From Mytilus edulis (taxonomy: Eukaryota): DNA of 64,000 nucleotides. The notes under the pieces were generated by a model. The model made no database searches and had not been told where the DNA came from. It worked only from the letters and a program-made list of their open reading frames with translations. Location: contig NC_092349.1 in NCBI RefSeq assembly GCF_963676685.1, positions 77,500,001 through 77,564,000 of the forward strand, in the 5' to 3' direction. Below are positions 39,230 through 53,485 of the stretch, in pieces (positions within the stretch are counted from its first letter, which is position 1; each line of letters begins with the position of its first letter). The position numbers and the translations under genes were made by a program.

Positions 39230-39527
39230 TAAAATGACATATTTTGATTGGCTAATACGAGGGTGTTAATTTACTCTATCGCATGGCTGAGCGGGTGACA
39301 TGATCTTTTTCTAATGTTACCCTCTCCTCTATACCTAATACCCGTAACGTTTTTATGTAAGTGACGTCATAGAAAATACTTTAAAAATAAAATTAATCTG
39401 TAAAAGACAATAAGGATAAGACGTTCAGTATGTAATAAATTAAATAACACATAGCTCAGAGGGTGTTAGAGCAGATTGGTACCCCTTGAAAAAGCATTGT
39501 AAACCTTGGATTTGCCGCCGTTGACAA
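39230..39527. mobile_element. Left part of a palindromic non-autonomous element split by the YR retrotransposon
   Basis: 39441-39477 matches the reverse complement of 45322-45358 at 34/37 nt; local symmetry centre ttgtaaac...gttgacaa at 39497-39527; related motif atggctgagcgggtgaca upstream at ~39283. Confidence 0.65.
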
Positions 39528-40469
39528 AAGGATTTAAAATCTACAATTTTAAAGCCCGTTATCCATTGGGTACAAACTCGAAGATTTTAATTTGGGCAGG
39601 TGGTGGTTCACTGTTGGGTATTTAACATTTGTGTTTATTAGTTTGATCGCAACCTCGCTTTGGTCTTTTCGAAATACGTCGGCAAGATTGCAGCAGACGA
39701 AAATTGGACGAGAAAATAATCTTCTTAAAAAAGTTGAAATAACACCTGAAATAGGTTTGATAAAGGGTTATAAGTTTATTTTGATATACGATAAAGACGG
39801 ATTGATATCGATTTAATCCCGATGTCTTGAAATTTTAGTTAAAAACGACATTTAAAAACATACAAAAATTTAATGTGCAAATGAATGTCGAATTTAAGTA
39901 AACGGTCACAGCCAAAAATAAATCAAACCAAGATTGTGTTAGACATTATATTTTTATGCAATTTGAAAATGTGAAGGAATTTATAACTGTTATTGCCGTA
40001 CTTTAGTGATATAAGGGGTTTTCAAATCAACCAAATATTTTCACAATGAAATTTTGAAATAGCTTATTGTCAGCATATAAATTGATGCAGTCGATAACTT
40101 AGTTCATCTAAATACAGGACAAAAATGAGCAAAAAGTTGAGTGTTTCGACTCTATTTATTGACAAACTTGTAATGACAAACTTCCGGTTAACGGTGAGCA
40201 TAAAAACCGGAACCGGCTTTGATAAACTCGTATGTTTCGGATTTGCACAAATGGCAAAACAATCATTTTAGTAAGTAGTAATTGATTCTTAGTTTATATA
40301 TCCTGAGAATAACACGAAAGAGCAAACTATAGGCATATAATCGGAGAGAGATTTGTGAAATACGTATGTTTTTGGATATTCACTTTTAATATTTTATATA
40401 TACATGTATATATAAGGTAAAGCACATGTATTTGAATGAAGATAACACATACACTTAAAGTTTCAGATC

Positions 40470-41564
40470 ATGTATAGGAGGTCCGGCAGAAAAAGGGTGC
40501 CGACAAGCAGGGCAAATAATGGAGGCGCAGCGGCTGCTGCAAAGAAGTCGAAACAGCAACAGGAAGAGGCGACTGCTAATATTGCAGATAGATTACCTAG
40601 AACAAGTGGAACACCACCTGTACAGCTCGGCTCAAAAACAGTGACAACTAATGTACTACCACACAGTCCAATAATGATCCCAGCAACACTGCCAGCAGAA
40701 ACAATTTACCCTGCTCCAGGTAATACAACATTACACCAACCCCTAATTAACACAGGTTATGCCTTACCCATTGAAACGGTTAAGGCGTCAGATGACATAG
40801 CGCGAAACGTATCGCAAAATGTCAAACAAAAAGTAATAAATGGGGAATATGTAGATATGGGCAGTTTGTTAAATAATTCACAAAACATAACAGGAGTGAA
40901 TCAAACACTTACATTTAATCAGGGACAGATTATATTACAACCTAAGCAACAGGATACAAGAATTAACACAATAGGTATATGGACGGATGCCTTTTTAATA
41001 TATATCAGTATTTATTGTACTATACATACATCTCAGTTCCAAGAACTGTTGAAGTATATGCAAACTGTCAGGTTAGGGGCTAAACGCTATGCAGGTTTAG
41101 GATGGAAATTGTATGATGAACAGTTTAGACTACGTAGATCACAGGAGCCTGCTGGATCCTGGTCTGTCATAGACACTGAGCTATGGTTATTGTATATGCA
41201 ACCAGCAGGTCCAATTAATGGGCCAGAGTTCAATATTGCACAAAAACCAACAAACAATTTTCTTAAATGCTATGCATATAATTATAATGGGACGTGCACC
41301 CAACCATATTGCACATACAAACATGCTTGTTTAAAATGCAGTGGGGTACATCCGGTTATATATTGCACTAATAGCAAAGTGACTAACTCTAATAATCCTC
41401 AGTCACCTGGGATTGTTCAGAGATTCAGATCAGCCCGGCCTCAAGCACCACAAAAAACAGCATCTAATTTTCAACCCTTTGCACCTAGGCAAATGCAAAA
41501 TAACACAAGATTCCGTTCTCCTGGAGCATTTATGGGACAAAGGCAAAACCCCAGTCAAAATTAA
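40470..41564 (+). CDS. gag: ORF1, gag-like protein with C-terminal Cys/His knuckle
   Basis: 364 aa; KQKVINGEYVDMGSLL, WTDAFLIY and GWKLYDEQFR blocks typical of YR-retrotransposon ORF1; CYAYNYNGTCTQPYCTYKHACLKCSGVHPVIYC zinc-binding cluster. Confidence 0.88.
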   Translation: MYRRSGRKRVPTSRANNGGAAAAAKKSKQQQEEATANIADRLPRTSGTPPVQLGSKTVTTNVLPHSPIMIPATLPAETIYPAPGNTTLHQPLINTGYALPIETVKASDDIARNVSQNVKQKVINGEYVDMGSLLNNSQNITGVNQTLTFNQGQIILQPKQQDTRINTIGIWTDAFLIYISIYCTIHTSQFQELLKYMQTVRLGAKRYAGLGWKLYDEQFRLRRSQEPAGSWSVIDTELWLLYMQPAGPINGPEFNIAQKPTNNFLKCYAYNYNGTCTQPYCTYKHACLKCSGVHPVIYCTNSKVTNSNNPQSPGIVQRFRSARPQAPQKTASNFQPFAPRQMQNNTRFRSPGAFMGQRQNPSQN

Positions 41565-43149
41565 ATCTTTAAGAGAATTACTGTCAAATTATGAAAACAA
41601 AACTGATGCAGCAATGTTATTATTGGGATTTATAGAGGGGTTTAGATTAAACTATACTGGTCCAAGGATCTCGAGTTTTGCAAGCAATCTCATTTCGGCA
41701 GAAGTTCACAAAACTGAAACGAATTTAAAATTACAAAAAGAAGTGCATCTTGGTAGAATGTTGGGCCCCTTTTCAAAAATACCAATTTCAACTTTAAGAA
41801 TATCTCCTATTGGGGTAGTTTCAAAAAATGACGGTGGATGGCGTCTTATAACTCACTTGTCATATCCTCTAAACTGGAGTGTGAATGATTTCATTGATCC
41901 AGAAATTTGTAAAGTAAAGTATTCTTCTTTTGATAAAGTGGTTGGGATGATCTCTGAATTAGGAAATAACGTGCTTTGCGCAAAAATGGACATTAGTCAG
42001 GCCTTTAGAATTTTATTGGTTCACCCAGCTGATTTTGACCTTCTGGGAATTTTCTTTGATGGGAAATATTATATTAATAAATGTCTGCCTGAAGGCTGTT
42101 CTATATCATGTGCCCTCTTTGAAAAATTTGCCACTTTTTTGCATAAAACAGTTGCATTGAAAGCTGGCATAGAGACTTTAGACCACTATTTGGATGACTT
42201 TTTCTTTGCTGGTGAAAGTTCAACGGATAATTGTACCATTTTGATGGACACTTTTAATGAAGTATGTAGGCAGCTAGGTGTTCCACTAGCAGAGAATAAA
42301 ACAGTAGGTCCTACCACATGTATCACATTTTTAGGCCTTGAAATTGACACAGTACTTATGTTGGTTAGAATCCCCCCTGAAAAACTGGATAAACTTAAAT
42401 TTATGCTTGATCAGGTCTTGTCGAAAAAGAAAATGGCACTGAAGGAACTTGAATCAATTACTGGTTTAATGGCATTTTGTTCAAGGGCTATTATATCAGC
42501 CCGTGCTTTTATTCGTCGTTTTTACGATTTGATAGCTTCAGTTAAGAATGGAAAGCCTTATTATACTGTCAGATTGAATTCAGAGGTCAAAGCAGATGCT
42601 AGAGTTTGGCTAAATTTTCTAGATCAATTCAATGGTCAGTGTTATTTTCCTGATAGATTTTGGTCGACTAATGAAAGTCTGGAATTATTCACTGATAGTG
42701 CAGGTAATGTTTTATTAGGTTGTGGAGCTTATTTTCAAGGTCACTGGGTACAATACCAGTGGCCAAGTAGTTGGGCTGATACTAGCATTTTATTGGATAT
42801 AACATGTTTGGAGCTTATTCCCATCGTGCTGTCGTTCATGATATGGGGTCGTTCATTTAGAAATAAAAAGATTCTGTTGAGAATAGATAATCAGGCATTA
42901 GTAAGCATTGTGAACAAAAGAACATCAAAATCAAAGAGAGTTATGATATTGATAAGACAACTAGTTTTTCTCACTATGAACAATAACATACAATTTAGGG
43001 CACAACATATTGAGGGTGAGCATAATGCAATCGCAGATGCTCTTTCTCGATTTCAGGAACAACGTTTTATGGACTTGGTCCCGAATGCAGACAGTTCTCC
43101 AGCAGCAATCCCACAAGAATTCCTGTCGATGATTTCAGAACTGAAATGA
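41413..43149 (+). CDS. pol: ORF2, reverse transcriptase-RNase H
   Basis: RT motifs WRLITHLS, KMDISQAFR, LPEGCSIS, YLDDFF and FLGLEID; RNase H motifs FTDSAG, LELIPI, IDNQ and ADALSR. Overlaps ORF1 by 152 nt. The listed start is TTG and the first ATG is at 41614, so the true start is uncertain. Confidence 0.95.
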   Translation: MFRDSDQPGLKHHKKQHLIFNPLHLGKCKITQDSVLLEHLWDKGKTPVKIKSLRELLSNYENKTDAAMLLLGFIEGFRLNYTGPRISSFASNLISAEVHKTETNLKLQKEVHLGRMLGPFSKIPISTLRISPIGVVSKNDGGWRLITHLSYPLNWSVNDFIDPEICKVKYSSFDKVVGMISELGNNVLCAKMDISQAFRILLVHPADFDLLGIFFDGKYYINKCLPEGCSISCALFEKFATFLHKTVALKAGIETLDHYLDDFFFAGESSTDNCTILMDTFNEVCRQLGVPLAENKTVGPTTCITFLGLEIDTVLMLVRIPPEKLDKLKFMLDQVLSKKKMALKELESITGLMAFCSRAIISARAFIRRFYDLIASVKNGKPYYTVRLNSEVKADARVWLNFLDQFNGQCYFPDRFWSTNESLELFTDSAGNVLLGCGAYFQGHWVQYQWPSSWADTSILLDITCLELIPIVLSFMIWGRSFRNKKILLRIDNQALVSIVNKRTSKSKRVMILIRQLVFLTMNNNIQFRAQHIEGEHNAIADALSRFQEQRFMDLVPNADSSPAAIPQEFLSMISELK

Positions 43150-44030
43150 ATCATTTACTTATAAATTCATTAGCACCCAGTACACAGAAAGCATATTTGC
43201 ATAGCATGGACATATTTGTTAAATTCAGAGAAAATCATGGTTTTTCTGATGTCTGGCCTATTCCGCTTGATGACTTGACATCATTCATTGTTTATATGTT
43301 TAGAAAGAAATTGTCCCACTCAACAGTATCTGGCTATATTTCAGGCTTAAGTTACTTTAATAAAATCAACAATTTAGAAGACAATACACAGAAATTTGTT
43401 GTCAGAAAATTGATTGAAGGAATAAAAAGGTTGGGGGGCCCAAATCAAAAGGACACTAGATTACCCATAACGAGAGATATATTGGAAAAATTATTGAGGT
43501 CACTGGCGGTGATTTGCAAAAACGGGTATGAGACAAAACTGTTTATGGCTTCATTTTCGCTAGCCTTTCATGGTTTTATGAGAGTAGGTGAAATAACAGT
43601 TGATTGTAAAAATAAGCAGATGCATACTGTAAAATTTGAAAATATAAAGCTTTGTGATGCAAGATTAGAGGTTTTATTGACGTCATCTAAAACTGATCAG
43701 TTTGGTTCTGGAACAACAATCGTTATTTCTAAGCAGAAAAACAAAAATGTATGTCCAGTACAAATAATGGCTAATTTTATTAAAGTTCGCCCACCTTATC
43801 TGGGACCTTTATTTTGTCATTTTGATGGATCCCCCCTTACAAGATACCAGTTTTCAGCATTATTAAAAAGGTCTCTGTCAGTAATTGGTATAGAAAACAA
43901 TGGATTTAAGTCCCATTCCTTTAGAATTGGCATGGCAACTACATGTGCATTAGAAGGTATTTCTGATGAACAAATTAAAGAAATGGGACGTTGGAAGTCA
44001 CAGGCCTTTTTGCGTTACATTAGGATTTAA
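43146..44030 (+). CDS. ORF3, tyrosine recombinase
   Basis: Catalytic set intact: R (GFMRVGE), K (SKTDQ), HxxR (HSFRIG), W (GRWKS), Y (LRYIR). ATGA overlap with the ORF2 stop; the frame is open back to 43026. Confidence 0.95.
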   Translation: MNHLLINSLAPSTQKAYLHSMDIFVKFRENHGFSDVWPIPLDDLTSFIVYMFRKKLSHSTVSGYISGLSYFNKINNLEDNTQKFVVRKLIEGIKRLGGPNQKDTRLPITRDILEKLLRSLAVICKNGYETKLFMASFSLAFHGFMRVGEITVDCKNKQMHTVKFENIKLCDARLEVLLTSSKTDQFGSGTTIVISKQKNKNVCPVQIMANFIKVRPPYLGPLFCHFDGSPLTRYQFSALLKRSLSVIGIENNGFKSHSFRIGMATTCALEGISDEQIKEMGRWKSQAFLRYIRI

Positions 44031-44197
44031 ATGCCTGAACATCATATATGTACATTTATTTGTGTAAATATGTTTCTATATTTGCTTATTTTGTAATGCA
44101 GTCTTGAGCTGACATTTAAATAATATTGTATTATGTAAATAAATGGTATGTCCTGCATCAATATAAGCAAGTAATAATTGCTTTCTAAGAATTGCAG

Positions 44198-44799
44198 GAC
44201 ATGCTACAGTTTGGATCGTTGGATCCTCGATTATTAAGCATGCCTTTGGGGAAGCCAGAGGAAGACCGGGAGGGGTAAACTTGGGGCTGCAGAGGATGGG
44301 AGTAAATATTTGGTGGCAGGGAAAATGTGGAGGTAAAGTGCTGGACATGAAACAACAAATAAGAACCATGTTAAAATATGAAGATCCGCCAACTATATTA
44401 GTTTTACATATTGGAGGCAATGATATAGGGGAAAAAAGTTCAAAAACTCTTTGTGAACTAATAAGGAAACAGTTCAGTTGGATGCGTCAACTGATGTTGG
44501 ACACAGTTTTTGTCTGGTCTCAAATTATTCCGAGATCAAGTTGGCGTTACTCTGACAATATTAATGCCATGGAAAAATGTAGAATGAGGGTTAATACCTC
44601 TATAGCATCATTTTTAACCAAAACAGATGGTTGTTACCTCCGTTACCCTGATATAAAGGCTAATGAATTATTCTTAATGAAAGATGGAGTGCATTTGACG
44701 TCTTTGGGAAATAACATTTTTTTGAATACCCTCCAGGGAGGATTAGAAATGATCATCAGGAATCTTGGCATTAATTTAACCTTCCCCGACTGTAAATAG
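44198..44799 (+). CDS. ORF4, SGNH/GDSL hydrolase (frame extends upstream of the track's 44281 start)
   Basis: Frame is open from 44167: ...GHATVWIVGSSII (block I Ser), GKCGGK (block II), HIGGND (block III), DGVHL (block V). No ATG precedes block I; an acceptor-like ttgcag ends at 44197. Confidence 0.88.
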
Positions 44800-44841
44800 A
44801 TACAACTGTTATGTTAACATTTTATATCTGACGTTTCAAGT

Positions 44842-45256
44842 AAGTTACTAGGAAGTAACTTGAAAGTTAATATATTAAATTGTATTTGGCACAGCTTCGC
44901 GCAGCTACACCCCCTCTTTTCAGTGGCGGTTGTCCAATCAGATCAAGTTGTTACCCTGATCTTATCGGACAATTTGGCACATTTCGCTGCGCTGGATTTA
45001 ACATTCATATATTCAGTGAACAGTAATGATAGCCTCTGATTACCAGGGCTCATCAGTCAACTTCTCGTACCAGACATATTACTTAAATATATTTATATTA
45101 GTGGTTTGCCATAATTTGCGGTAGCCACATTATAATTTACATATATATTAAATACAGACATTGATAAATATATTTCAGAGCAAGATTGCCAATTTAAATA
45201 CATATTATATATCATATATGTTATATTTTATTCAAGATAAAGCTGTGGCCAAATAC
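44842..45256 (+). other. Structured 3' non-coding region of the retrotransposon
   Basis: Several hairpins, most of them enclosed by GTATTTGGCACAGCTT (44882-97) / AAGCTGTGGCCAAATAC (45240-56); pairing found by eye. Confidence 0.6.
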
Positions 45257-45290
45257 TGCCAAAACCTTATTATCTATTTGTTATGTTTTG

Positions 45291-45358
45291 GGCCTCGAGG
45301 ATAATGTTTTCTCGGGGTAATAATCTGCTCTATCACACTCTCAGCTATGTGTTATTTA
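45291..45358. mobile_element. Right arm of the split palindromic element
   Basis: Inverted match to 39441-39500. Confidence 0.7.
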
Positions 45359-52929: not shown

Positions 52930-53485
52930 GCTGACTTGTCGACTTGCTGACTATTTTTATTGAGTACTCAACTTCCCCCTACACAACATCCTGACTTAAT
53001 GACAAATAATCTATGGATAACATGAAACATCTGCTGACCTGTCGACCTGTCGTCCTGCTGACCTGTCGACCTGTCGACCTGTCGACTTGCTGACCTGTCG
53101 ACCTGATGACCTGTCGACCTGATGACCTGTCGACCTGTCGACCTGCTGACATGTCGACCTGCTGACCTGTCGACCTGTAGACCCGTCGACCTGCTGACCT
53201 GTCGCCCTGCTGACCTGTCGACCTGCTGACCTGTCGACCTGCTGACCTGTCGACCTGCTGACCTGTCGACTTGCTGACTATTTAACTGAGTACCAAACCT
53301 TTCCTCTACACAACATCCTGACTTAATGACTAATAATCTATGGATAACATGAAACATCTTTTGACCTGTTGTCCTGCTGACCTGTCGATCTGCTGACCTG
53401 TTGACTTGCTGACCTGTTGACCTGCAGACCTATCGACCTGCTGACCTGTTGACCTGCTGACCTGTAAACTTGCTGACTATTTAAT
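52930..53485. repeat. Inverted 8-bp satellite (cctgtcga/cctgctga)n inside a higher-order repeat
   Basis: The spacer cttgctgactattt...ctacacaacatcctgacttaatgac...gaaacatct recurs at ~52943 and ~53270 and partly at ~53469; explains ORFs 52968-53357 and 53338-53559. Confidence 0.9.

Follow-up and report, generated by a model that had tools for sequence, protein, structure and literature searches.

Open reading frames (ORFs) of DIRS-order retrotransposons are described as overlapping or frameshifted, and the translation of the downstream enzymes is left unexplained (PMC3783388; PMC3266345; papers are cited here by PubMed Central number, each for the portion of its text that was available). The Ngaro-like group is characterized by split direct repeats, gag, reverse transcriptase/RNase H (RT/RNase H), a tyrosine recombinase (YR) and sometimes an SGNH hydrolase, without a methyltransferase (PMC9210276; PMC7192593); the function of the Ngaro hydrolase is called unproven (PMC9210276). 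Ngaro hydrolases often have no start codon before the catalytic motif. In this work we analyzed a tyrosine-recombinase retrotransposon copy at positions 39525-45304 of a 64,000-nt stretch of Mytilus edulis DNA (assembly GCF_963676685.1, contig NC_092349.1, 77,500,001 to 77,564,000 of the forward strand; this whole stretch is called the window). An ORF and Pfam scan of the copy found four ORFs: gag-like, RT/RNase H, YR and hydrolase. An initial annotation of the window had proposed that one donor in the gag leader is joined to three acceptors. We concluded that the element likely makes RT, YR and hydrolase by alternative splicing from a single phase-1 donor after gag codon 83, with a probability of about 0.92. 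Such a one-donor, three-acceptor programme is a testable answer to how the downstream enzymes are translated.

The element resembles Xenopus DIRS-53_XT and DIRS-54_XT in the order gag, RT/RNase H, YR, SGNH hydrolase, in split repeats of the form A1...B1-A2-B2 and in having no methyltransferase ORF (PMC9210276). Assigned by ORF order and repeats rather than by a tree, it fits the Ngaro type: the sister copies L002-L014 carry split direct repeats (A1...B1-A2-spacer-B2), of which the window copy keeps A1 and one B, the order is gag-RT/RNase H-YR, and an SGNH hydrolase follows the YR. The RT and YR ORFs matched PF00078 and PF00589 above cut-off, the RNase H family PF13456 matched below cut-off, and GDSL families matched ORF4 below their curated cut-offs (E 4e-5); homologs of the window hydrolase carry PF13472. 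The gag-like ORF1, whose exact sequence is present in NCBI, gave no Pfam match at E 0.01 and takes its label from position and Cys/His motifs. No methyltransferase family was matched in the four ORFs, which argues against a DIRS1-like or PAT-like element: PAT elements combine split direct repeats with a methyltransferase (PMC7192593). DIRS1-like elements have inverted terminal repeats and an internal complementary region as well as a methyltransferase; the ends of the present element are direct repeats, and the only long inverted pair sits in the flanks outside it. A retrovirus or long terminal repeat (LTR) retrotransposon was rejected as well, since the four ORFs have no Pfam match to a protease, DDE integrase or env, and encode a YR instead. 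Subgenomic splicing is familiar from the env of avian sarcoma-leukosis virus, which includes a few gag codons, from Drosophila gypsy env, from foamy virus pol and from the major donor of human immunodeficiency virus. The shared logic is one upstream donor, several acceptors and an unspliced RNA that serves as genome and gag message; the Mytilus element would differ in needing splicing for all three enzymes and in having no env, protease or DDE integrase. The retroviral resemblance is a likeness of mechanism, not membership.

Examination of the window copy confirmed the proposed donor (CCAG/GTAATA, cut between 40719 and 40720, after 83 codons plus 1 nt) and the three acceptors, whose first exon bases (41489 for RT, 43057 for YR and 44198 for the hydrolase) each lie in phase 1 of their own ORF (Table 1). 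Each join yields a Gly codon in frame, and the branch-point motif CTAAT at 41464 is present. It was also correct that the first in-frame ATG of RT (41614) comes after the TPV block, so that a start there omits the conserved TP block, and that the hydrolase has no ATG before its catalytic GSS (first in-frame ATG at 44296); that of YR is at 43146. The RT acceptor stands 62 and 59 nt before TP in families F2 and F3. Two further sites held in part. The additional phase-1 AG/G exists, with its first exon base at 40756 instead of 40755, and we judged it unused because the intron would measure 36 nt. This is under the minimum intron size. Of the supposed 5′ untranslated region (UTR) intron, both GTAAGT (40271) and TTTCAG (up to 40466) were confirmed; the RefSeq model of a sister copy (XP_071140300.1, P0073) matches 40232-40270 joined to 40461 onward, 6 nt upstream, and use of the acceptor with the exon from 40467 was not seen among the RefSeq models compared. 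Just upstream of the donor come a pyrimidine tract (10/12 pyrimidines) and CAG (40706-40725 including the donor), a dual acceptor/donor look that most families do not have. The warning that codon structure creates such sites by chance proved apt: phase-1 AG and phase-1 GT win ∼40-56% of control coding windows. Because phase-1 sites are this common, those of the window copy alone prove nothing, and the excess over chance comes from the comparison of families and from spliced genomic copies.

For this comparison 57 diverged loci were taken from the hydrolase match list; 55 of them plus the window copy formed 19 families, the other two lacking a hydrolase anchor. Family representatives, chosen by open-frame length, are 24-63% identical to one another in the hydrolase (median 37%), and splice sites were scored with generic matrices of approximate frequencies. 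The donor, the hydrolase acceptor phase and a CAG in the RNase H tail were kept across the diverged families. From the gag ATG to the conserved gag core, the top-scoring GT was in phase 1 in 18/19 families (exception F7); in a 210-nt window fixed after this first result it was in phase 1 in 19/19, 77-179 nt before the anchor, versus 120/243 controls. Ahead of the hydrolase GSS, at a distance of 9-60 nt, the top-scoring AG was in phase 1 in 18/19 families versus 64/162 controls (naive p 6.5e-7), and in F12 the phase-1 AG was a close second. In 15 of the 19 representatives, the open frame leading to GSS contains no in-frame ATG. In the RNase H tail, a CAG Gln codon stands 2 or 4 codons after the Arg in 19/19 families (72/166 for RT Gln codons elsewhere) and the same Arg is CGN in 19/19 (background 123/294), with naive p ∼1e-7 for these codon tests. 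In 18/19 families this CAG is in phase 1 of YR (the single F17 copy is shifted), and in 16 the frame stays open from there to the YR domain. Unshifted copies have the YR frame closed 2-24 codons ahead of the CAG, and in nine families the intact copies lack any Met from the YR acceptor up to the first YR helix. In F0, F8, F10, F14, and F15, all with strong phase-1 acceptors, the open RT frame starts as little as 13-34 codons ahead of TP, and F8, F10, F14, and F15 have no ATG in that interval. The gag-to-RT frame offset is 0, 1 or 2 among representatives (some frameshifted); the splice phase stays 1. The shared leader exon covers ∼40-165 aa of the Gag N-terminus across families (83 in the window family) and is basic, with 7-11 Lys/Arg within 30 residues after the first or second Met in 18/19 families, the F16 copy being truncated. 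Elements with a different layout offer a contrast. L137 (G000:C2:66701000-66709000), L140, L141, and L142, which represent two full-length families (L137; L140 plus L141) plus L142, have a hydrolase ORF with its own ATG upstream of gag (order HYD-gag-RT-YR); all four keep the RNase H tail CAG, and the phase-1 donor is the top-ranked one in all but L142, where it comes second.

Next, 80 further loci were added and 135 copies in 17 families were compared with their family references, which gave 62 deletion-like rows (some repeat one event or stem from an insertion in the reference, and the donor flag of F16 is void, the GT-AG check being unaffected). In seven of the 62 the deletion begins at the predicted donor, and each of these ends base-exactly at a predicted AG, as verified by checking the junction letters; GT-AG boundaries were found in none of the other 55. 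Four are leader-to-YR copies (F11 L068, L138, L162, and L168; 2316 nt deleted), one is a leader-to-hydrolase copy (F11 L156; 3398 nt deleted) and two are leader-to-RT copies (F10 L090, 1088 nt deleted; F12 L182, 709 nt deleted). L068 retains both terminal repeat blocks and has a 371-aa open leader-YR frame. The spliced copies diverge from the reference by ∼1% to >10%, and the four YR copies have 0-2 private variants in common per pair, which suggests separate, repeated events. Among rejected candidates, a GT-AG row in F4 (three queries versus L103) is an insertion in L103 only, with a short duplicated end, and the deletions of L139 and L091 are not clean GT-AG.

Database gene models show the same YR and hydrolase joins. 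The RefSeq M. edulis protein XP_071174200.1 (X1, 407 aa) consists of leader, Gly and YR exon with one leader mismatch and no exon mismatches, and XP_071174201.1 (X2, 283 aa) of leader, Gly and hydrolase exon with 0-1 mismatches per part; the two are consecutive accessions on one chromosome. Six 283-aa leader-hydrolase models were checked, and the leader-hydrolase model XP_071180569.1 agrees with the window copy without a mismatch. Leader fusions of YR or hydrolase from other families were recognized by inspection among the models of M. trossulus (LOC134707625 X2, X4, and X5), M. galloprovincialis and Ostrea edulis, and two further ORFs, one of 300 aa in Logan and one of 384 aa in ENA, are built alike. 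XP_071174200.1- and XP_071174201.1-type models are named “xerD homolog” or “uncharacterized protein”, not retrotransposon products. At the join, the members of the isoform pairs P0023/P0086 and P0211/P0267 are 3 or 1 residues apart, suggesting tandem acceptors.

Four RNA runs (raw reads X22 and X23; contigs X6 and X8) were compared with window positions 39800-45000. Record 3 of X6, a 559-nt RNA contig at depth 28.6, follows the element over 40690-40719 and departs from it precisely at the donor. The 30 letters beyond that point correspond, with one mismatch, to G000 C4:86190259-86190230, which begins immediately behind a pyrimidine-rich host AG. This branch into a host exon directly behind 40719 shows that the donor is active in RNA. 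This join is out of frame, and presumably it arises from a likely polymorphic insertion missing from G000 that makes a chimeric transcript. The host exons (L021:1530, minus strand) gave no Pfam match; we take the exon at L021:1530, from its motif, to resemble PLAC8/cornifelin, which Pfam did not confirm. An in-branch of X8 at 41543 (phase-1 AG/G) was rejected as a splice: its loose end is found, with 3 mismatches, at another place in the genome where no donor follows.

Several observations weigh against the splicing programme, in whole or in part. Mapping RNA to the element, as the initial annotation had suggested, showed the donor at work on a host exon, and the three internal junctions were absent from the X6 and X8 contigs, the main X6 contig being unbroken over 40690-45000 and X8 unbranched at the three acceptors; rare forms are lost in contigs, and the internal splices may therefore be of low abundance or confined to some tissues. 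The raw runs X22 and X23 are shallow and gave 8 and 78 reads without joints. The host-exon join comes from one contig with a 3-nt CAG ambiguity, and no source insertion was found 20 kb upstream or 10 kb downstream in G000. Spliced copies of the window family were absent among 19 sister loci and 20 donor-region matches. The RefSeq joins are automated gene predictions, and no 636-aa leader-RT was among the 15 matches listed of 42 RT-cluster members. An exact look-up of 10 RT proteins from nine other families gave no database match. The naive p-values are overstated because the families share ancestry. Scored by itself, the YR acceptor is non-significant (11/19 versus 43/88 controls), and the RT acceptor, a weak test, is in phase 1 in 15/18 families versus 74/133 controls (p 0.014). 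Among the RT misses, F11 and F12 turn to phase 1 once intact copies are scored. F4 and F7 have their best AG in another phase and F1 scores poorly; these three families all have upstream ATGs, and their RT acceptors stay ambiguous in a wider window.

This RT evidence bears on an alternative that we regard as unlikely, namely that YR and hydrolase are spliced and the RT of the window family is made as a Gag-Pol fusion, by frameshift or slippage, or from the ATG at 41614. In the window copy gag and RT overlap with a +1 offset, the 41489 acceptor scores only 1.1, and the RT models of this family among the matches listed start at the 41614 Met (511 aa). In the sister copies L007, L012, and L013 a 1-nt deletion at ∼41456 in an A6 run (41452-41457) gives 896-900-aa gag-RT frames, which may reflect a slippage hotspot or homopolymer assembly errors. 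A fused frame of 875 aa was also seen in F12 L094. However, leader-to-RT joins are base-exact in two other families (F10 and F12), the late opening of the RT frame described above comes with strong phase-1 acceptors and mostly without an ATG, and a start at 41614 leaves out the conserved TP block. To judge from sequence and relatives, the 40719>41489 join is probably used in the window family.

It is far less probable that the sites are cryptic signals for the host machinery that only inactivate element RNA, the enzymes being made from internal ATGs, by leaky scanning or by reinitiation, and the spliced copies being dead ends. The contig graphs show mainly unspliced RNA, and the sole RNA join seen runs out of frame into a host exon; however, internal starts are hard to reconcile with the 15 representatives that have no ATG before the hydrolase GSS and the nine families without a Met ahead of the first YR helix, and the phase is conserved with joins in frame, as in the leader-YR frame of L068. 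A chance origin, in which codon structure supplies phase-1 AG/G and G/GT that gene predictors exploit, agrees with the control windows and can practically be dismissed, because the seven exact genomic joins (with no other GT-AG among the 62 rows) and the RNA branch at the donor are both independent of gene prediction. The proposal of one phase-1 donor and three phase-1 acceptors is therefore supported by the signals in 19 families, the base-exact copies and the RefSeq YR and hydrolase joins.

Under alternative splicing from the leader, RNA not using the 40720 donor would provide Gag and the genome template, and splicing to 41489, 43057 or 44198 would produce leader-RT/RNase H, leader-YR or leader-hydrolase, presumably translated as fusions. 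The leader would give the enzymes a start codon, as follows from the sequence, and a basic N-terminus (9 Lys/Arg in the first 30 aa, then a Pro/Thr-rich stretch) likely to serve nuclear import or RNA binding; we lean slightly toward a putative nuclear localization signal. The conserved Gag core begins only downstream of the leader, so the enzymes would not carry it, as they would in a Gag-Pol fusion. Spliced RNAs would keep both element ends, and the spliced genomic copies could then stem from occasional reverse transcription and integration of such RNAs. The chances appear even that animal Ngaro retrotransposons in general, and perhaps much of the DIRS order, have used leader splicing from their origin to express every enzyme, in the role that Gag-Pol frameshifting plays elsewhere. 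Such a strategy would account for the conserved RNase H tail codons and the YR/RT overlap and would continually spawn integrated single-enzyme retrocopies.

If the programme operates, biochemical work gains the true N-termini of RT, YR and hydrolase, and enzyme amounts are predicted to be set by splice ratios. Many bivalve “xerD homolog” and “uncharacterized” models would then be element isoforms, and the strong donor would offer elements a route to capture host exons. In Arabidopsis Ty1/Copia elements, conserved alternative splicing sets the ratio of structural to catalytic protein (PMC5580714). The arrangement there is reversed: spliced RNA yields GAG and full-length RNA the polyprotein, whereas in the Mytilus element spliced RNAs would yield separate enzymes. 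In the literature searched we found no description of a spliced-leader programme in Ngaro elements; the founding Ngaro paper, a 2015 review and Repbase lie outside that search, and an earlier mention is possible. The available text of PMC9210276, PMC3783388, and PMC3266345 has no “splic” or “intron” and no shared spliced leader; in 12 of 30 places shown of PMC7192593 the intron passages concern a reporter intron; and the available parts of PMC6681497, PMC4157794, PMC9341512, PMC2632668, and PMC9940879 hold nothing relevant to leader splicing.

Table 1. Features of the retrotransposon copy in the window (positions in nt from the first letter of the window).
Feature	Position	Strand	Evidence or remark
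A1 terminal direct repeat, ∼208 nt	39525..39732	+	In full-length sister copies a second A repeat, A2, immediately follows B1
Likely 5′ UTR intron, donor GTAAGT at 40271, tandem acceptors (exon from 40461 or 40467)	40271..40466	+	Sequence, RefSeq
Shared coding leader, 250 nt (83 codons + 1 nt)	40470..40719	+	gag ATG at 40470; ends before conserved gag core
gag-like ORF1, 364 aa	40470..41564	+	Read if the 40720 donor is unused
Major phase-1 donor GTAATA	40720..40725	+	Sequence, RNA contig, RefSeq joins, 19-family comparison
Predicted RT acceptor: branch-point-like CTAAT (41464), pyrimidine tract, AG	41464..41488	+	Score 1.1; 62 nt before TP
RT/RNase H exon	41489..43149	+	PF00078; computed leader-RT product 636 aa
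YR acceptor inside RNase H ..LSRFQ codons	43040..43056	+	Sequence
Tyrosine-recombinase exon	43057..44030	+	PF00589; 407 aa with leader
Hydrolase acceptor in YR-hydrolase spacer	44180..44197	+	Sequence
SGNH/GDSL hydrolase exon, motifs GSS, GGND, DGVH	44198..44799	+	PF13472 below cut-off; 283 aa with leader
Single B repeat	44972..45304	+	Window copy is without the A2-spacer-B2 block of sister copies L002-L014

The family has ∼20 copies at 95-100% identity in its own 1.37-Gb genome (40 of 108 candidates scored). The single B of the window copy likely results from B1/B2 recombination that took out A2 and the spacer, and several F11 copies look alike. An Rfam scan of one full copy gave nothing above chance. 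A 52-nt inverted repeat (87% complementary, arms 39441-39492 and 45307-45358) flanks the element, which was therefore probably inserted into a small hairpin or a repeat like a miniature inverted-repeat transposable element. At the ends of L001-L014 no target-site duplication was apparent; B ends in ..GATAA and A begins with (C/T)AAAAGG, and the letters at the junction are thus similar to those of the target. Copies L073, L131, L096, L093, L117, and L017/L018, from five families, keep A1 and have lost the sequence from the A1 end to an internal point, as expected if short complementary DNAs jump onto the A repeat. In the 5′ UTR of F15, a 933-nt deletion (L091:916 versus L121:616-1550) ends at an AG just before the gag ATG; it starts at ATGAGT and leaves one extra G. 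Outside the element, a tandem-repeat-derived open frame of 153 codons lies at window positions 52968-53429 on the minus strand.

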